A stretch of 64,000 nt of DNA from Candidatus Moraniibacteriota bacterium. GTDB lineage: Bacteria; Patescibacteriota; Minisyncoccia; Moranbacterales; UBA1568. The stretch is taken from NCBI GenBank assembly GCA_043743535.1, contig JAYTWI010000009.1, forward strand, positions 3,407-67,406. Reading direction: 5' to 3'. The notes under the pieces were generated by a model. The model had not been told where the DNA came from and did not search any database. It saw nothing but the letters and a program-made list of their open reading frames with translations. Both the position numbers and the translations under genes were made by a program. Numbering within the stretch: position 1 is the first letter of the stretch; the number at the start of each line of letters is the position of its first letter. Positions 8,727-55,812 of this stretch are shown here, one piece after another.

Positions 8727-9032
8727 TTGTTTCTTATGACCTACACTTTCAAACTTCAACTTAAACCGAGTACATCCACCATCACCCTCTTGAAAGATGG
8801 GGTAGTGTTTGATGAAGTGACGTGGCCGGAAGCGCGGGATATGGGGCGGAAGCTCTTTGCGGCCATCGTTTGGTTGCTGAAAAAGCATCATCTCAAACCA
8901 GAGGCGGTCAGTGATTTTTTGCTTGAGAGCGAGATCCCGGACGTCTATACCTCGATGCGTATTGCCGAAACGGTCAAAAGGGTGTATACTTTCGGGGTGA
9001 GTACAAAAGGTACAATAAAAAAAGAGGAGTAA
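8727..9032 (+). CDS. short TsaB(YeaZ)-like N-terminal domain protein (tRNA t6A biosynthesis partner), truncated relative to E. coli TsaB
   Basis: LKPSTSTITLLKDGVV...WPEA...GRKLFAAIVWLLKKHHLKPEAVSDFLL...YTSMRIAETVKRVY parallels TsaB LAIDTATEAVSVAL...ILPMV...GPGSFTGVRIG layout. Confidence 0.45.
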   Translation: MFLMTYTFKLQLKPSTSTITLLKDGVVFDEVTWPEARDMGRKLFAAIVWLLKKHHLKPEAVSDFLLESEIPDVYTSMRIAETVKRVYTFGVSTKGTIKKEE

Positions 9033-9396: not shown

Positions 9397-12300
9397 ATGT
9401 CCAAGGTAGAGAAAGCATTGCGGGTCAAAGATACCTTTAGTAAGGAGTCATCCCTCTCGAAGCGTCGGTTTTTCAATAATCGCATTACCGTGTCCCTACC
9501 GGACCTGATCGAGGTGCAAACGGATTCCTATCAGTGGTTCTGGGACAAAGGTCTGAAAGAATTGTTTGATGAAATTAACCCAATCACTGATTTCACCGGC
9601 AAGGATCTGGAATTGACCATTGCTGACTACTATCTTGACGAGCCGAAGTATCCAGCGCTTATTGCCAAGAACAAAAACATTTCTTACGAAGCGCCACTGC
9701 GCGCCAAGGCCACGCTTCTCATGAAGAAGACGGGGGAAGTGAAGGAGCAAGAGATCTATCTCGGCGACTTCCCGATTATGACCGAACGGGGAACTTTTAT
9801 CATCAATGGCGTCGAGCGTGTGGTGGTGTCGCAGCTCATCCGATCGCCGGGAGTGTTCTTCACCATGGACTACCAAAAGGGCAAGAAGCTTTTTGGGGCT
9901 AAAATCATTCCAAATCGCGGAGCCTGGCTCGAGATCGAGACTGACTTAGACGGCGTCATTTCGGTGAAAATTGACCGCAAACGCAAGCTGCCGATAACCG
10001 CCTTGTTCAAGGCCTTTGGGTTTGATGACAAACGCATCCGCGATGAATTCACGGCCTTTGATACGGGTGAAGTAAAATATATCGAAAATACTTTTTTGAA
10101 AGATTCTTCCCATAATCAGGGGGAAGCCTATCGTGAAGTCTACAAGCGTCTCCGTCCGGGGGATTTGGCGACGGAGGAGAATGCCAAGCAGATGATTAAC
10201 GCCATGTTTTTCAACTTCGAGCGCTATGACTTCGGTGCAGTGGGGCGTTACCGTTTGAACCAACGCCTCTCCGTGGAGCGCGCTGACATTGAAGAGAACC
10301 GCATCCTCAATACCGATGACCTGGTCTTGATCGTCAAAGAAGTCATCCGCCTCAATAATGATCCGGAAGGACGCGCTGATGATATCGACCACCTTGGCAA
10401 TCGGCGCGTGCGTGCAGTCGGAGAACTGATTCAGAACAAACTACGCGTTGGTATGTACCGCATGGTACGCAATATCAAAGATCGTATGAGCACCTGCGAG
10501 CCGGAAACGGTGGTGCCGGGCCAGCTGATTAATCCGCGTCCGGTGGCTGCCTCAGTCAAAGAGTTTTTTTCCAGTTCCCAATTGTCCCAGTTTATGGACC
10601 AGGTCAACCCGTTGGCCGAACTGGAACACAAGCGTCGCCTTTCCGCGATGGGACCTGGTGGTTTGACTCGCGAACGAGCCGGTTTTGAGGTGCGTGACGT
10701 GCACCATTCACATTATGGTCGCATCTGTCCGATTGAAACGCCGGAAGGACCGAACATCGGTTTGGTCGGCCATTTGGCCAGTTACGCTAGGGTCAATGAG
10801 TATGGTTTTCTCGAGACCCCGTATTTGATTGTTAAAAAAGAAGTAGCAGCCAAGAAGGACGAGCTGGTCAATCGCATCTTGGCCGCTGATATGAGTGGTG
10901 TAGCCAAGGCAGGAGAAGTCCTGACGGAAGAATTAGCAGCCAAAGTAGCGGCCAAAACCAAGGGTGAGACGGTCAAAGTCCGACCGTTTGTGACGCTCGA
11001 TATCGAATACTTGAATGCTATCGTCGAAGATCGTAAGATTATCGCCCACGCTCGTATCAAGATGGATGAACATCGGAACGTGGTTGATAAAATGGTAGAA
11101 GCGCGCGTGAAGGGCCATCCTGAAACTATTGAAGCCGACTCCCTTGATTATATTGATGTTTCAGTCAAACAGTGTATTTCGATTGCCACGGCCCTGATTC
11201 CGTTTCTGGAACATGACGACGCCAACCGCGCCCTTATGGGTTCGAATATGCAACGCCAGGCCGTGTCCTGCATCATCCCACAGTCGCCGATTGTTGGCAC
11301 GGGCATCGAGGACAAGGCCGCTCGTGATTCCGGTCAGGTAGTGTTGTCTCTCTTTGCCGGCGAAGTGCTCGCGGTTGATGCCACTCACATCGTGGTACGC
11401 TCTCAGGCACCGGCTGGAGCTAAGAAAGACTATGTTGATACCGAATACCTCCTCCAGAGTTTTGAAAAATCCAACGCCTTCACGTCGATGAACCAGGTGC
11501 CACGGGTCACTAAGGGTCAGACGGTAGAAAAAGGCGACCTGTTGGCTGACGGCGCTTCGACCGATCACGGTGAACTGGCTCTGGGTCAGAATATGGTAGT
11601 GGCCTTCGTGCCATGGGACGGTTTCAACTATGAAGACGCTATCATCATTTCTGAACGCGTGGTGCAGGGTGACCGTTGGAGCTCGATTCACATTGAAGAC
11701 TTCTCGATTGATGTCCGTGATACCAAGCTTGGACCGGAAGTGGTGACGCGTGATATTCCAAACATCGGCGAGGATCGTTTGAAAAACCTTGACGAAAATG
11801 GCATTATCCGCATCGGTGCCGAAGTGTCCTCTGGTGATATCATGGTTGGCAAAATTACCCCGAAAGGCGAGGGTGATTTGACGGCCGAAGAAAGACTGCT
11901 CCGTGTTATTTTCGGTGAAAAGTCACGTGACGTCAAAGACTCTTCTTTGTACTTGCCACACGGCGAGCACGGCAAAGTGGTGGATGTGAAGATTTTCTCT
12001 CGGGAACGTGGAGACAAACTGCCGATGGGGGTTTTTGAACAAATCCAAGTATCGGTAGCTCAGATGCGTAAGATCTCGGTCGGTGACAAGCTGGCGGGTC
12101 GGCACGGAAACAAGGGTGTGATTTCACACGTGGCTCCTGCCGAAGATATGCCGTATTTGCCCGATGGAACACCTGTCGACGTTATTTTGAACCCGCTCGG
12201 TATTGCTTCTCGTATGAACATCGGCCAGCTGCTCGAAACTCATTTAGGGTGGGCGGCTATGAAGCTCGGCTACAAGGTGGCGAGCCTCGCCTTAGACGGG

Positions 12301-30237: not shown

Positions 30238-30250
30238 CCTTCTTCTCGAG

Positions 30251-30336
30251 AATAACAGGTATCCACCTGATTTTACCAGCACTCGCTCGGAAACAAAAGT
30301 GCACTTTTGTTTCACTCGCTTCGTTTGGTAATAAAA
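30251..30336 (+). repeat. intergenic repeat family copy 1 (~86 bp, contains perfect 24-bp palindrome GAAACAAAAGTGCACTTTTGTTTC)
   Basis: AATAACAGGTATCCACCTGATTTTACCAGCACTCGCTCGGAAACAAAAGTGCACTTTTGTTTCACTCGCTTCGTTTGGTAATAAAA; near-identical to copy at 38251. Confidence 0.9.
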
Positions 30337-38222: not shown

Positions 38223-38250
38223 GCGATACTGGAAAGGATCAAAAAACCAA

Positions 38251-38339
38251 AATAACAGGTATGCACCTGATTTTACCAGCACTCGCTCGGAAACAGAAAA
38301 TGCACTTTTGTTTCACTCGCTTCGTTTGGTAATAAAAAA
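38251..38339 (+). repeat. intergenic repeat family copy 2
   Basis: AATAACAGGTATGCACCTGATTTTACCAGCACTCGCTCGGAAACAGAAAATGCACTTTTGTTTCACTCGCTTCGTTTGGTAATAAAAAAG. Confidence 0.9.
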
Positions 38340-39848: not shown

Positions 39849-40295
39849 ATGCGTTGTCCATTTTGTAATCACGAAGAGACCAAGGTAGTGGATTCCCGCG
39901 AGACTCAGGAAGGGCGGGCGATTCGTCGTCGCCGGCAGTGCGAAGACTGCCAGGCTCGTTTCAGCACTTATGAGGAGGTGGAAATTTTTCGACTTTTGGT
40001 AGTGAAGAAGGATGGCCACAAAGAAGAGTATGACAAGACTAAGATCGAAAAGGGTTTACGCCGGGCTTTCGAAAAACGGCCGCAGGCAGAAGAACGTATC
40101 GAGCGCATCTTAGGCGAGATCGAGTACACACTCCACGAGCGACAGGTGAGCGAGATCTCCAGCCGTGAAATCGGCAGTCTCATTATGGAGAAACTGAAAG
40201 CTGTGGATGAGGTTGCTTATATCCGTTTTGCTTCGGTCTATAAATCTTTCGGCAGCGCCAAAAGTTTCCGTAAAGCTTTGGAGACCCTCGATTAA
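39849..40295 (+). CDS. nrdR: transcriptional repressor NrdR
   Basis: MRCPFCNHEETKVVDSRETQEGRAIRRRRQCEDCQARFSTYE zinc ribbon plus ATP-cone. Confidence 0.85.
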   Translation: MRCPFCNHEETKVVDSRETQEGRAIRRRRQCEDCQARFSTYEEVEIFRLLVVKKDGHKEEYDKTKIEKGLRRAFEKRPQAEERIERILGEIEYTLHERQVSEISSREIGSLIMEKLKAVDEVAYIRFASVYKSFGSAKSFRKALETLD

Positions 40296-40296
40296 A

Positions 40297-41772
40297 ATGA
40301 GAAAAGATCAGGTCTTCTTTGGTAGCCTCCTCAGTTTTATCATTGGGGTCGGAGTCGGTTCATTTTTGAATTTTTCTTTTGCTTTCACTTGGTATCTCGG
40401 GACTGCTCTCATTGGAGCGGTTTTCTGTCTCTTCCCGAGAAGGATAATTCTTCTTTCATGGTTGTTTTTCTCTCTGTTTCTTTGGGGCACGTTCATCGCT
40501 TCTCAGGCCGAGCTTAGTTTTGCTCATCTGACATTTCCGACGACCGAGCGTGTGGGTGAAGTGCGTGTGATCAGTAATCCAGAGGAGAAAGGTTTTTTTC
40601 AAAAGGTCATTGTCCGTTTCACGGATTGTGTTGGAGGATGTCCGACGAAAGACATCTTGTGGCAAGCACCAGTGTCAACGATGATTGAAGCCGGTGAGCG
40701 CTTGCAGTTTCGTTGCCATCTAGCACGGCCAGAAAATTTCAGTGCTGATTTCGACTACCGTATGTTTTTGGCCAAAGATGGGATCGGTTTTTTGTGTCAA
40801 CATGCTACGTTAGCCGAAAAATTACCCGGGGATACGCCGGGACGCGTCAGTGCCGCCCTCTATGTGTTGAAGCATGCCTTGGAACGGGCTCTTTCTCAAA
40901 GTATTCCTGAACCGGAAGCGGGGCTGGCTAAGGGACTATTGCTTGGCGGCAGCAGCTATCTCCCTGATGCTTTGCAAAATGCTTTCACCCGAGTGGGGCT
41001 GACCCACATCGTGGCGGTGTCTGGTTACAATATCACTCTCATTGCGGAGGGACTGCTCTTCCTCGGATTATTTTTTGGTCTGTGGCGTAAGCAAGCGTTG
41101 TGGGTAGCATTTTTTGGCATTGTCTTTTTTATCCTGATGATTGGAGCGCCTGCCTCGGCCACGCGGGCCGGCTTTATGGCTGGAGTGGCCTTTGCGGCAC
41201 TTCAGGCTGGGCGTTTGGCGCGACCGCTCAATGCTTTGCTTTTGGCCGCCTCGATTATGCTTCTTTTTAATCCCTTGCTCTTGCGTTATGATGTCGGCTT
41301 TCAACTCTCCTTTTTGGCAACGTTGGGTATTATTTTTGTCTTGCCGTATATTGAGCGGGTGCTGCCCGAAAAGTTGCTTGCCCAAAGCGTGGGTGAGATC
41401 ATTCTTATGACTATGGCAGTGGAACTTTTTGTCTTACCGATTATCCTCTTTTCGTTTCATCGTTTTTCGCCGCTTATCATCGTGGCCAATTTTCTCATCA
41501 TCGTGGTACCTTTCGCTATGGCGGCTTCGTTTGTGGCTGGAGTGTTGTTCTTGCTCTTACCGGGGACACATACTCTTTTTGCCTGGCTTGCCTTTGCTCT
41601 TTTGACGTTCATTACCCGATCAGTCGAATGGTTGGGGGCTATCTCTTCAGCCAGTGTAACGATCGACGGTTTTGGAGTGAAGAGTCTGTTACTGTGGTAC
41701 GGAGTACTCTTTTTCCTTGTCAGATGGGGCGAGAAGCACTATGCTCAAAAAAACTATGACTACGAAAAATAA
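40297..41772 (+). CDS. comEC: ComEC/Rec2-family competence membrane channel (DUF4131 + competence domain, no fused MBL domain)
   Basis: ATG overlaps nrdR stop (TAAAATG); GLLLGGSSYLPDALQNAFTRVGLTHIVAVSGYNITLIAE; many TM helices. Confidence 0.8.
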   Translation: MRKDQVFFGSLLSFIIGVGVGSFLNFSFAFTWYLGTALIGAVFCLFPRRIILLSWLFFSLFLWGTFIASQAELSFAHLTFPTTERVGEVRVISNPEEKGFFQKVIVRFTDCVGGCPTKDILWQAPVSTMIEAGERLQFRCHLARPENFSADFDYRMFLAKDGIGFLCQHATLAEKLPGDTPGRVSAALYVLKHALERALSQSIPEPEAGLAKGLLLGGSSYLPDALQNAFTRVGLTHIVAVSGYNITLIAEGLLFLGLFFGLWRKQALWVAFFGIVFFILMIGAPASATRAGFMAGVAFAALQAGRLARPLNALLLAASIMLLFNPLLLRYDVGFQLSFLATLGIIFVLPYIERVLPEKLLAQSVGEIILMTMAVELFVLPIILFSFHRFSPLIIVANFLIIVVPFAMAASFVAGVLFLLLPGTHTLFAWLAFALLTFITRSVEWLGAISSASVTIDGFGVKSLLLWYGVLFFLVRWGEKHYAQKNYDYEK

Positions 41773-41856
41773 CAGGTATTTACCCGATTTTACTGGCACT
41801 CGCTCGGAAACGAAAGTAAACTTCGTTTCGCTTACTTCGTTTGGTAATAAAAAACT
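41769..41856 (+). repeat. intergenic repeat family copy 3 (diverged, with compensatory change in palindrome arms)
   Basis: AATAACAGGTATTTACCCGATTTTACTGGCACTCGCTCGGAAACGAAAGTAAACTTCGTTTCGCTTACTTCGTTTGGTAATAAAAAA; overlaps comEC stop codon. Confidence 0.85.
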
Positions 41857-41860
41857 CAGA

Positions 41861-42691
41861 CTGTTAATTTTTTGTTTGGCGCTCACCGTCTTCTTAGGGA
41901 TCCTTTTTTGCTTTTGGTTTTTCTGGCAGTATCAAAAAACAGAAGTAGTGTTCTTGAATGTGGGTCAGGGCGATGCCATCCTCATCTCGCAAGGGACGAA
42001 TCAAATACTGATCGATGGCGGGCGGAGTAGTAAAGAACTCCTGGCACATTTGGGGCGCCACATGCCATTTTGGGATCGCCGCATCGAAGCGGTTATTGCC
42101 ACCCACCCGGATGCCGACCATATTGGTGGTCTGCCAGCTCTCTTTCGGGCTTATCAGATCGGAGCAGTGTTCTACACGGGGGCGGAAAGTGACACGGAGA
42201 CTGACCGACTCTTTTTAGCGGGAGGAGAGAAGAGTACTGGGCACGCTCTCTACACCATTTTTCACGGTGGCAGTATGGAATTTCCAAAGGGAGGGAAACT
42301 TTCGATTGAATATCCACAGACGGCACTGCCCAAAGAAGCCAAGGACACCAACGAGGGGAGTATCGTGGCTCGGTTCGTGTATGGCGAAACAAGTTTTCTT
42401 TTGACGGGGGACTTGCCGCACGAAGAAACGGTCTTGCTCGATGAGGCACCAGTGACGGTACTCAAGGTAGCGCATCACGGTTCCAAGTATTCATCGAGTG
42501 AAGATTTCCTCAAGATGGTGGAACCGAAAGAAGCCATCATTTCCGTCGGTCAGAATAGTTATGGCCATCCAAATCAGGGCGTGCTAGAACGTTTACAGAA
42601 GATAGGGAGTATCATTCATCGGACAGATCAAGAAGGGGACATTGTTTATACTTGTTTAGCTATGATCAAACAATGCCACTTTGTGAGATGA
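41861..42691 (+). CDS. membrane-anchored MBL-fold metallo-hydrolase (stand-alone ComEC C-terminal beta-lactamase-like domain)
   Basis: VVFLNVGQGDAILIS, ATHPDADHIGG, VAHHGSKYSS; start codon unresolved (ORF-track ATG 41717 lies inside comEC and reads through the repeat; CTG 41861/TTG 41876 possible). Confidence 0.65.
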   Translation: MLIFCLALTVFLGILFCFWFFWQYQKTEVVFLNVGQGDAILISQGTNQILIDGGRSSKELLAHLGRHMPFWDRRIEAVIATHPDADHIGGLPALFRAYQIGAVFYTGAESDTETDRLFLAGGEKSTGHALYTIFHGGSMEFPKGGKLSIEYPQTALPKEAKDTNEGSIVARFVYGETSFLLTGDLPHEETVLLDEAPVTVLKVAHHGSKYSSSEDFLKMVEPKEAIISVGQNSYGHPNQGVLERLQKIGSIIHRTDQEGDIVYTCLAMIKQCHFVR

Positions 42692-44247: not shown

Positions 44248-44321
44248 CGGGCTGTAGTATATCGGCAGTACGCGTGCATGGGGTGCACGTAGGCCGGGTT
44301 CGATTCCCGGCAGCCCGACCA
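44248..44321 (+). tRNA. tRNA-Pro (anticodon GGG)
   Basis: acceptor CGGGCTG/CAGCCCG, D-arm GTAT..GTAC, anticodon stem CGTGC/GCACG with loop ATGGGGT, T-arm CCGGG-TTCGATT-CCCGG, discriminator A, encoded CCA. Confidence 0.85.
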
Positions 44322-44331: not shown

Positions 44332-44457
44332 TAAGGCTGGGGGGCGTAAAGCAAACTGCTTTGCTTTACGCGGGTATTTCCGTAAGTCGTCTCTGGCTTA
44401 CGGATAAAAAACACCCCGGAACTTGTAGTAGCAGTTCGATTCTGCTTACCCCGACAT

Positions 44458-44547
44458 TTTTGGTTTATTACCAAACGAAGCGAGTGAAACGAAAGTGTAC
44501 TTTTGTTTCCGAGCGAGTGCTGGTAAAATCGGGTGAATACTCGTTAT
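44458..44547 (-). repeat. intergenic repeat family copy 4 (reverse orientation), inside the tRNA-flanked insert
   Basis: plus strand TTTATTACCAAACGAAGCGAGTGAAACGAAAGTGTACTTTTGTTTCCGAGCGAGTGCTGGTAAAATCGGGTGAATACTCGTTATT. Confidence 0.85.
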
Positions 44548-44645
44548 TCTTCATGTACGCGGCATGGGGGTAAAAAGTGAACTGCTTCACTTTTTACGGT
44601 TTTCTTCGAAAAGCGTCTCTGTTTTTCGGGAAAAGAAAACCCGGA

Positions 44646-44692
44646 GCACGTAGGCCGGGTTCGATTCCCGGCAGCCCGACCATAAAGAAAAA
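44646..44692 (+). repeat. 47-bp direct repeat copy 2 (partial tRNA-Pro 3' half; att-like)
   Basis: perfect match to 44285-44331; no 5' tRNA half upstream. Confidence 0.9.
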
Positions 44693-45419: not shown

Positions 45420-45491
45420 CTCACAGTCCTACTGGTCTCCTCCAGTAGCCATATATCAAGCCCGTATGACATTATTCATACGGGCTTCTTC

Positions 45492-45531
45492 ATTACCAAA
45501 CGAGTGCAAAATCAGGTCAATAACTGTTATT
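45492..45531 (-). repeat. intergenic repeat family copy 7 (internal-deletion derivative lacking the palindrome)
   Basis: ATTACCAAACGAGTGCAAAATCAGGTCAATAACTGTTATT aligns to both ends of the family consensus in reverse orientation. Confidence 0.6.
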
Positions 45532-45540
45532 TTTAAATAT

Positions 45541-50655: not shown

Positions 50656-50689
50656 CCCGCGTAGGTCATTGACCAATGCGGGTTTTTTT
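50656..50689 (+). terminator. rho-independent terminator (compound hairpin)
   Basis: CCCGC-gtaGGTCAtTGACCaat-GCGGG + TTTTTTT. Confidence 0.65.
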
Positions 50690-50768
50690 ATTACCAAACG
50701 AAGCAGCTGAAACAAAAGTGTACTTTTGTTTCAGAACGAGTACCAATAAAATCAGGTGAATACCCTCC
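50684..50768 (-). repeat. intergenic repeat family copy 5 (reverse orientation)
   Basis: plus strand TTTTTATTACCAAACGAAGCAGCTGAAACAAAAGTGTACTTTTGTTTCAGAACGAGTACCAATAAAATCAGGTGAATACCCTCC. Confidence 0.85.
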
Positions 50769-50949
50769 CACGGCTTGCTAAGGAAAGAGGCGAACACTAG
50801 CTTGCTTTGAGTCCAGAGTTTATCCTGGGGTGAGTACCTGTTACTTCTGAAAATAGTTGAAATAAGGGAAAATGATGGCTTAACCCAGTTAGAGGAAAGT
50901 CACTGCTAGTGACCGAAGTCGCGCCAAAGGCGCAGCGTTCTCTCACGGG

Positions 50950-55376: not shown

Positions 55377-55730
55377 ATGTCACGAAGTCTCAAAAAAGGT
55401 CCATACGTCGATCCCCGAGTTTTGAAAAAGATCGAGGGAAAGAAATTGGGTGATCGCGAAGTCATTAAGACATGGTCGCGCGCTTGTGTCATCTCGCCTG
55501 AGATGGTAGGGTTCACTTTCGGCGTACATAATGGCAAAATTTTCATTCCTGTTTTTGCGACCGAAGAAATGGTGGGTCATCGTCTGGGAGAGTTCTCCCC
55601 GACTCGTACCTTTCGTCGACACGGTGGCAAGATGCAGAAAGAAATTGAAATTGCCTCCAAGCAACGTGACTTGGATGCCGCTAAGGCCGCCAAATCAGCT
55701 ACTGCCGCTCCTACCGCCAAGAAGAAATAA
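55377..55730 (+). CDS. rpsS: 30S ribosomal protein S19 with Ala/Lys-rich C-terminal tail
   Basis: [20 protein letters not shown]...[18 protein letters not shown]. Confidence 0.9.
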
Positions 55731-55743
55731 CCTTTATGAAAAT

Positions 55744-55812
55744 GTTTTTTCCAGCACTCCATTCGGAATCAAAAATAAATTTTCGTTTCGCTCACTCCGT
55801 TTGGAAATAACC
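55744..55812 (+). repeat. intergenic repeat family copy 6 (degenerate) between rpsS and rplV
   Basis: TTTTTTCCAGCACTCCATTCGGAATCAAAAATAAATTTTCGTTTCGCTCACTCCGTTTGGAAATAACC vs consensus GATTTTACCAGCACTCGCTCGGAAAC...GTTTCACTCGCTTCGTTTGGTAATAA. Confidence 0.6.

Follow-up and report, generated by a model that had tools for sequence, protein, structure and literature searches.

A dispersed hairpin repeat in a Moraniibacteriota genome belongs to a family of mobile elements with covarying stems, probably of the IS200/IS605 type

Insertion sequences (ISs) of the IS200/IS605 family have no inverted repeats and insert their left end 3' of a tetra- or pentanucleotide that is specific to the element and is required again for excision (PMC5027513). 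Palindrome-associated, protein-less derivatives of this family, the PATEs, are described from Haloquadratum walsbyi (PMC3119063) and Geobacillus stearothermophilus (PMC10055086), and protein-less PATE-like elements share their ends with ISs that encode TnpA and are mobilised in trans (PMC10055086, PMC3119063). Here we describe a dispersed repeat of ~85 nt from 64,000 nucleotides of a Candidatus Moraniibacteriota bacterium (contig JAYTWI010000009.1, positions 3,407 to 67,406 of the forward strand; this whole stretch is "the window"). The hairpin under study lies in the third copy of the repeat, at 41807-41829 on the + strand. We propose that the repeat is probably a non-autonomous, PATE-like element of the IS200/IS605 type and represents a new family.

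The repeat is a mobile DNA element. It comes in a short form of ~80 nt and a long form of about 155-165 nt and encodes no protein. A covariance model built from 40 copies matched the window at six full copies and one remnant (E = 1e-23 to 2e-3), and the repeat is no chance match. Its ends are sharp, and the flanks are unrelated among copies. The closest relative that we recovered (L110) has the same gene order (ftsA-ftsZ-nrdR-comEC) at about 88% nucleotide identity and lacks copies 2 and 3. At the site of copy 3, this relative reads GAAG-AATAA-AAAACTG and the window reads GAAA-AATAA-[CAGG...TTTGGT-AATAA]-AAAACTC; the junctions are clean, and the empty site contains AATAA once. Similarly, in L057 an element lies exactly between the stop codons of two convergent genes, at a site that is empty in L055. 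At a sugar ABC-transporter locus, L038 has an array of two units (8574-8818) and L094 an array of three (7789-8123), with flanks that are 100% identical; the arrays lie between the gene for the solute-binding protein and the first permease gene of the operon. The same long form is found with different flanks in L022, L034, and L066. Finally, L099 (~10270-10295) retains only the first 12 nt (ATGAAAGGTATC) of an element that is whole in L072, which is explained by a deletion between two TATC repeats. Orphan element starts like the one in L099 also follow arrays in L108, L093, and L048.

In the short form, a small end hairpin is followed by an outer stem (TTACC/GGTAA) that closes a large internal loop, and this loop contains the studied hairpin. 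In copy 3 (all on the + strand), the small end hairpin is at 41773-41786 (CAGGT-ATTT-ACCCG, with one A·C), and the outer stem pairs TTACT at 41790-41794 with GGTAA at 41843-41847. The 5' strand of the internal loop is CACTCGCTCG (41797-41806), which is nearly invariant across the family, and the 3' strand is GCTTACTTCGTTT (41830-41842; family consensus (C)ACTCRCTTCGTTT). Between them lies the central hairpin, GAAACGAAAG (41807-41816), TAAA, CTTCGTTTC (41821-41829), whose 3' arm has lost one T, leaving a bulged A. Read in the orientation of copies 1-3, the short form has the consensus AATAA, C-AGGT-ATTC-ACCT-GA, TTTTACC-GG, CACTCGCTCGG, GAAACGAAAG-TAAA-CTTTCGTTTC, ACTCACTTCG, and TTTGGTAAT-AA. 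In the long forms of both branches of the family (see below), the loop of the end hairpin contains three additional hairpins, between direct repeats of the 10-nt GGTATTCACC. There are no terminal inverted repeats: in every copy, the 5' end (AACAGGTATTCACC) is unlike the 3' end when the latter is reverse-complemented (ATTACCAAACGAAG).

A pattern scan with one genome per species gave 25 loci, nearly all from metagenome-assembled genomes (MAGs) of Candidatus Moranbacteria / Moraniibacteriota, which belong to the Candidate Phyla Radiation (CPR). A scan of metagenomes that was anchored only on the two strands of the internal loop gave 84 further stretches, and many of these form a sister branch. 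It has the same loop strands (GCA-CTCGCTCGG ... CTCGCTTCGTTTGG) around a wholly different inner hairpin (GGGAGAG-T-GACCAT-TGC-ATGGTC-CCTTTCCC), and its outer stem switches to TTGCC/GGCAA, TTTCC/GGAAA, or TTCCC/GGGAA. One sister-branch contig (L101), where the neighbours of the element are sugar and amino-acid transporters, is assigned to the Sphaerochaetaceae by protein similarity (76% identity to a protein from a named MAG), and we refer to this branch as the Sphaerochaeta type. Its arrays run head-to-tail, as [long][short][short], with a period of 89 nt and a common junction motif. The two invariant single strands form a direct repeat, CTCGCT(C/T)CG, that is common to CPR bacteria and Spirochaetes, while the paired parts around them have been replaced.

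The stems of the element are under selection and are not decaying neutrally. A paired substitution could also arise by chance among neutrally decaying copies: the window has few copies, half-step states are common at the pair of interest (five A·C and one true G·T), and kinship among the copies inflates shuffle tests. We find this scarcely credible. Slid-partner controls preserve the relatedness, yet only 34-53% of stem cells are in standard pairs when the 3' partners are slid, as compared to 91.6% for the actual partners across 40 Moranbacteria copies (and 100% for the outer stem). Nine of the 20 pairs have double-sided changes (shuffles, 4.0±1.2; 0/500 reach nine), and 28 cells changed on both sides (shuffles, 10.5±3.6). 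Across 113 copies from both branches, in an alignment that was fitted to the model and is therefore biased towards structure, 91.3% of stem cells pair (38-63% if slid), 14 of 20 pairs have double-sided changes, and 373 cells are changed on both sides (shuffles, 145±18; 0/500). In these 113 copies, the middle pair of the outer stem is G:C in 48, A:U in 42, C:G in 6, and U:A in 6. The small end hairpin also covaries (CAGGT/ACCTG, CGGGT/ACCCG, and CGAGAT/ATCTCG), and the inner hairpin has been fully replaced across the family, swapped as a whole between branches, with pairing kept. In contrast, we found no sign of pairing between the two strands of the internal loop, as their sole variable position fits independence exactly.

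An earlier note on this DNA had argued from a few copies that paired substitutions reflect selection on the stem, and at the level of the family this holds: covariation between the arms is significant both in the 40 Moranbacteria copies and in the 113 copies from two phyla. The bases that it described for copies 1 and 3 are also right (copy 1, whose hairpin is GAAACAAAAG-TGCA-CTTTTGTTTC, has A:T where copy 3 has G:C), but the direction of change is reversed. Among the 40 copies this position is G:C in 30, A:T in 3, A·C in 5, and a true G·T in 1 (one more G·U count is due to a 1-nt alignment shift in copy 2). Because G:C is the majority state of the family, copy 3 has retained the ancestral pair, and copies 1 and 5 have a derived double change to A:T.

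Two further statements need revision. Copy 4 does have G·T on the + strand of the window, but this copy is inverted, so that it has A·C in the orientation of copies 1-3. Nor does this mismatch imply RNA, as had been suggested: G·T, here on the element's other strand, is the best-tolerated mismatch in DNA as well. Also, the 1-nt shortening in copy 3 does not help to maintain the hairpin; it weakens the stem and restores a reading frame (see below). When folded as single-stranded DNA, copy 3 scores no better than shuffled sequences (z = -0.2 and -0.9 on its two strands), and copy 1 takes on the canonical fold with three helices (z = -3.3 and -3.7).

The sites of insertion share a short target. 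On the strand that is complementary to copies 1-3, which we use to describe the ends and targets, the left flank of the Moranbacteria type is TTATT in 42 of 51 copies, and the right end is TTATT in 25 of 35. For the Sphaerochaeta type, the left flank is TGATT (21 copies), TTATT (8), or TCATT (8), and the right end is TCATT in 16 of 21 long forms. AATAA contains TAA and TGATT contains TGA, which explains why the element touches stop codons: in 7-8 copies of the Moranbacteria type the element's TAA ends the upstream gene, and for 10 of 38 arrays of the Sphaerochaeta type a gene ends at the TGA of TGATT. The tandem arrays are explained as well, since the right end restores a target at which another copy can insert, next to the first.

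These motifs also bear on whether the element is a classical miniature inverted-repeat transposable element that is moved by cut-and-paste, with a DDE transposase and a target duplication of 3-5 bp (AAT, TAA or AATAA). The empty site has a single AATAA, which flanks the insert on either side where the site is filled, and an IS1595-type DDE gene adjoins one IS200 copy in L111, although without a link to the element. For the Moranbacteria type, where the target equals the right-end motif, no duplication and a 5-bp duplication predict the same sequence. In the Sphaerochaeta branch, the flanking motifs systematically differ (AATGA vs. AATCA), which argues against duplication. Furthermore, the element lacks terminal inverted repeats, its two ends having unrelated sequences. 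We consider a cut-and-paste element to be very improbable.

Instead, we propose that a Y1 (HUH) TnpA transposase, supplied in trans, would excise one strand (the reverse complement of copies 1-3, which for copy 3 is the - strand of the window) as folded single-stranded DNA and paste it at a new site. Insertion would occur just 3' of the pentanucleotide (TTATT in Moranbacteria; TGATT, TTATT, or TCATT in the other branch), and the right end of the element would close with the same kind of pentanucleotide. The stems would be kept because only copies that fold can be mobilised, and the A:T, G:C, and half-step states would be lineages of a replicating element and not repair in place. The target of selection on the stems is likely to be this transposition as folded single-stranded DNA, rather than an RNA function for the host, because some sites are filled in one genome and empty in another, the Moranbacteria type has no preferred orientation relative to genes, there are tandem arrays, and the end hairpins of the long forms are of IS200 type.

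A candidate source of the transposase was found at L034. This was the only Y1 transposase that a motif scan over all of the gathered sequence identified (Pfam Y1_Tnp, E = 1.9e-33). The 148-aa protein is encoded by a complete IS200-like element (8247-8738, - strand of the locus) with CTTG-loop hairpins at both ends, and the 12.5-kb contig, of the Moranbacteria type, has both this IS and the miniature element. The left end of the IS is GGTATAATTCC-CCGCGG-CTTG-CCGCGG-ATG and its right end is CCTCGCGG-CTTG-CCGCGAGG-ATTATTTATT. On the strand of the IS, a long form of the miniature element reads GGGTTGAATACC-CCGCGG-CTTG-CCGCGG-AT ... CCAGGG-CTTG-CCCTGG-GGTAAATACCTGTTA(TT); another reading, on the strand opposite to copies 1-3, is GGTGAATACC-CCGTGG-CTTG-CCACGG ... 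CCAGAG-CTTG-CTCTGG-GGTGAATACCTGTTATT. In sequence, the CTTG-loop hairpins of the long forms are nearly the same as the left-end hairpin of this IS. Also, the 20 nt of CCCCGCGGCTTGCCGCGGAT are identical in the L034 IS and in long forms from the same metagenome (L028). Related IS copies have TTTATT followed by CACTCCGGGTAAATACC-CCGCGGCTTGCCGCG at the left end and GTTCATT, GTTTATT, or GTTATT at the right end, and at least one of them (L113) appears to follow TTTATT. If the outer stem of the miniature element is folded, then a linker of 17 nt (AAAATCAGGTGAATACC) separates TTATT from the CTTG hairpin, as long as the one in the L113 IS, which fits our proposal. Homologues of the L034 IS are very numerous, and most lie on short contigs (about 1 kb), which is expected for insertion sequences with many copies.

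We infer that a transposase of the L034 type moves the element, which strand is active, and what part the central hairpin and its invariant flanks play. For the strand, the evidence is a hint. In the orientation of copies 1-3, the cells of the two hairpins that are not Watson-Crick pairs are A·C in 27 cases and G·T in 9, which corresponds to wobble pairs on the presumed top strand, and copy 4 folds canonically only on that strand. The earlier note had suggested wobble pairing as a way to identify the transcribed strand; the two hairpins point one way by this measure, and the outer stem gives the opposite answer (0 A·C vs. 8 G·T). Overall, the results from folding energies and from G·T vs. A·C are mixed.

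The outer stem is one of several observations that count against an IS200-type element. In the Sphaerochaeta-type hairpin, a G·T is fixed on the strand that is not the presumed top strand. The motif scan found no transposase gene in the 64-kb window. Short forms, including the studied copy, do not have the CTTG-loop hairpins that tie the long forms to IS200, and their two hairpins are dissimilar to each other, unlike the ends of IS608. The domain with the studied hairpin is in none of the IS200-like copies that we examined. Single-stranded motifs that are nearly invariant across two phyla exceed the known recognition needs of TnpA. And AATAA on both sides of the insert fits a target duplication of 3-5 bp equally well.

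Some of these observations would be explained if the short element were a separate mobile element with its own mechanism and the long forms were short elements with a nested IS200-type miniature element. The loop of the end hairpin would have received the nested element and could lose it precisely, and the link to IS200 would then say nothing about how the short form moves. Indeed, long and short forms differ by one block that is flanked by the 10-nt direct repeat GGTATTCACC; the short forms have a small hairpin of their own that covariation shows to be kept, and in L025 its sequence is wholly different; the IS200-like copies examined have no left domain; and the polymorphic insertions that we saw are short forms. 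However, the long forms have the same architecture, hairpin by hairpin, in the Moranbacteria and Sphaerochaeta branches, so the combination is old and has been inherited as a unit. The ends of the short form also obey the rules of IS200/IS605 (a pentanucleotide that marks both the target and the right end, hairpins in subterminal positions, and no inverted repeats), and under nesting, the linker to the left hairpin would be just 3 nt, as compared to 17-20 nt in the IS copies. We think that a nested origin of the long forms is unlikely.

Alternatively, the element could be chiefly a structured RNA, either a stabiliser that acts in cis in 3' untranslated or intergenic regions, as REP elements do, or a small RNA or guide scaffold, and its spread would be secondary. 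The unpaired CTCGCTCGG and CTCGCTTCGTTTGG do not vary across two phyla, in contrast to the covarying stems. The arrays of the Sphaerochaeta type lie directly after stop codons with one orientation preferred (34 vs. 6), and 10 of 38 are at the exact TGA, although the TTATT/TGATT target accounts for these contacts. On the strand of that orientation, the loops of the hairpins are CUUG, and in four of four groups the consensus folding energy is lower on this CUUG strand. The intergenic region of malE-malF is the classic position of a REP, and arrays of the element lie between genes for solute-binding proteins and permeases as well. But around the Moranbacteria type the flanking genes show no bias (>E> 10, <E< 10, >E< 8, and <E> 11, where E is the element), which argues against an obligatory role in a transcript. 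Also, the short forms are too small for a conserved promoter and their flanks are unrelated; copies lie inside an open reading frame (ORF), between ftsA and ftsZ, and in the S10 operon, without a conserved context; and no Rfam family matches. A primary role as RNA therefore seems quite unlikely to us.

There is also a slim chance that the domain of outer stem, internal loop, and hairpin is a functional module itself and is not just carried along by an IS200-type element. As such, it could provide an RNA scaffold or guide for an effector that is encoded elsewhere, or a novel type of recognition site for an enzyme that acts on single-stranded DNA. The IS200-type proposal does not explain the invariant single-stranded motifs, which leave room for a further function. 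More than 100 natural copies show stem covariation that is probably read as DNA and not RNA, which is a caution for screens for RNA motifs.

Searches of Rfam, of the literature, and of viral contigs gave no match to the family, and a search between the element's ends gave no autonomous copy with cargo. Among the Rfam 15 covariance models, which include the HEARO/IscB ωRNA, the IS605-orfB RNAs, and self-cleaving ribozymes, none matched at its gathering score, nor at E ≤ 5 in the window or at E ≤ 1 in 11 loci from both branches. A full-text search of the literature with the invariant motifs returned only unrelated primer sequences, and the element had no match in viral contigs. The family is common to CPR bacteria and to at least one contig affiliated with the Sphaerochaetaceae, which suggests that it has been transferred between very different bacteria or is of great age. 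A third sub-family (L039, L050, L062, L082, and L098) has a short inner hairpin, GGAAATACCC-AAG-GGTACTTC, and in L050 the element is followed on its 3' side by the reverse complement of its 5' start (..CAATACCTTTCAT). A long form in L107 (5452-5631) has an extra hairpin-forming insertion of ~26 nt (TCGCCTCGATTCGAGTCGAAGCGGGC) between the 5' arm of the outer stem and the loop strand, which shows that the domain accepts modular insertions.

We also considered and rejected several other identities. The element is not an attC site of an integron (R'' RYYYAAC / R' GTTRRRY): its outer stem is TTACC/GGTAA, without AAC/GTT pairing, and the copies are scattered in both orientations among housekeeping genes and do not form a cassette array. 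It is not a REP moved by a RAYT, as there is no GTAG motif, the arrays run head-to-tail, and the hairpins of the Y1 genes (L034 and relatives) are direct, as in IS200. A bridge RNA, as in IS110, does not fit because the flanks are not conserved beyond the pentanucleotide. The Sphaerochaeta-type long form begins with ATG, but it is not coding: the 89-nt period is not a multiple of 3, the Moranbacteria type has no ATG, and the stems covary.

All seven copies in the window lie within 26 kb (30248-55811), and the covariance model found none in 1-30 kb or 56-64 kb. Copy 1 (30248-30335, +, short form, 107.9 bits) is after rplY, which encodes ribosomal protein L25, and before a convergent LytR-family gene. 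Copy 2 (38248-38336, +, short form, 97.5 bits) is between ftsA and ftsZ, as identified by Pfam, and has a 1-nt insertion in the 5' arm of its hairpin. Copy 3 is a short form (+, 99 bits) that spans 41765-41851 by the covariance model; the insert itself is the 78 nt at 41773-41850, with AATAA at 41768-41772 and 41846-41850. Copy 4 (44464-44551, -, short form, 106.1 bits) is inverted and beside tRNA-like sequences. Copy 5 (50685-50845, -) is a long form of ~160 nt with its core at 50687-50774 (81.5 bits); it is upstream of tuf and antisense to it, and by alignment with other long forms its extra hairpins are partly decayed. Copy 6 (55723-55811, +, 82.1 bits) is a diverged short form between rpsS (S19) and rplV (L22), inside the S10 operon. 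Its outer stem is TTTCC/GGAAA, which is compensated, and the element's TAA is the stop codon of rpsS. Copy 7 (45471-45534, -, 26 bits, E = 0.0017) is a remnant with both ends, which lost its central hairpin by a deletion between the TCG repeats of the loop strands. In this CPR genome, of a kind that is regarded as streamlined, a miniature transposon occurs about once per 4 kb across these 26 kb, at sites such as ftsA/ftsZ, rpsS/rplV, and within a ComEC-domain gene.

Copy 3 changes the protein that it interrupts. The membrane part of ComEC (DUF4131 and Competence domains by Pfam) is encoded at 40207-41772 (+) and its stop codon is the TAA inside the AATAA of the insertion site. The ORF for the metallo-β-lactamase (MBL) domain, also identified by Pfam, is at 41741-42691 (+); it begins upstream of copy 3 and reads through it. 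In L110, the MBL ORF starts 32 nt upstream of the insertion point, overlapping the end of the membrane ORF (MLKKAMILKNKKLGLLIF), so copy 3 is inside the MBL ORF. The insert is 78 nt instead of the canonical 79, and reading through it adds 26 residues that are encoded by the element (…KN-NRYLPDFTGTRSETKVNFVSLTSFGN-KKLRLLIF). If the missing T is restored in silico, then the frame reads …NFRFAYFVW and two stop codons, and the ORF is closed. Homologues are 279-290 aa long and do not have the extension; the protein on record has 311 aa. The simplest account is that the T was lost by selection for the MBL reading frame, at the cost of the hairpin, but about 5 of the 40 copies have indels, so chance is possible.

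ComEC is encoded by two overlapping ORFs (the membrane part, and a transmembrane helix with the MBL domain) in the window and in all of the Moranbacteria relatives that we retrieved. We rejected an intron-like excision that rejoins ComEC: the removal of 79 nt does fuse the ORFs in frame, but the MBL homologues in Moranbacteria are all separate proteins, and therefore the split is ancestral. The element thus accounts for a 26-residue N-terminal extension and for stop codons that it supplies, which may be taken for annotation errors. In S19 (55377-55730), which has 117 aa, the Pfam domain covers residues 3-82 only, and a tail of ~35 residues that is rich in Ala and Lys ends at the TAA from copy 6.

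Near copy 4, a tRNA-Pro(GGG) gene is at 44248-44321, and its last 40 nt with 10 nt of downstream sequence are duplicated at 44643-44692 (98% identity). Two paralogous units of ~120 nt lie between this gene and its duplicate (44336-44457 and 44556-44685), with copy 4 between the units. Each unit combines two hairpins, one with a CTGC loop and one with a CGTCTCTG loop, with an A-rich stretch and a 3' end that resembles the T-arm and acceptor of a tRNA. ARAGORN and Rfam called neither unit. The units could be left over from an integration into the tRNA gene, or they could be unusual tRNA-like RNAs.

Of the known systems, the PATEs are non-coding as well, with many copies, conserved target and end motifs, and presumed mobilisation in trans, and they have ends in common with ISs that encode TnpA, which here is true of the long forms only. 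The short form is much smaller than a PATE (~80 nt) and is without IS-type hairpins; the element adds a domain of stem, internal loop, and hairpin with invariant single strands, which is absent from the IS copies examined; and it forms head-to-tail arrays, with no link to an ωRNA or TnpB found. The IS200/IS608 elements, which are moved by a Y1 HUH TnpA through "peel and paste" transposition of a single strand, resemble it in having no inverted repeats, in their subterminal hairpins, in insertion 3' of a specific pentanucleotide, and in a similar right-end motif, and the left-end linker and CTTG-loop hairpin nearly equal those of the IS on the carrier contig. Unlike them, our element has no tnpA, and the distance from the left cleavage site to the hairpin is ~95 nt unless the extra domain folds away.

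The REP, BIME, and REPIN sequences of Enterobacteria and Pseudomonas, with their RAYT proteins, are also short extragenic palindromes with high copy numbers, compensatory changes, and related Y1 enzymes, and they too are found after stop codons and between the genes of ABC-transporter operons. In the family described here, however, there is no GTAG 5' of the palindrome, the units are direct and not inverted doublets, and the associated Y1 gene has direct hairpins of the IS200 type instead of flanking inverted REPs. Lastly, the Rickettsia palindromic elements (RPE) also include copies that are translated in frame within protein-coding genes, as in the 26 residues that were added to the ComEC MBL protein. 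The sequences are unrelated, and we know of one such case here, which needed a 1-nt deletion to be in frame.

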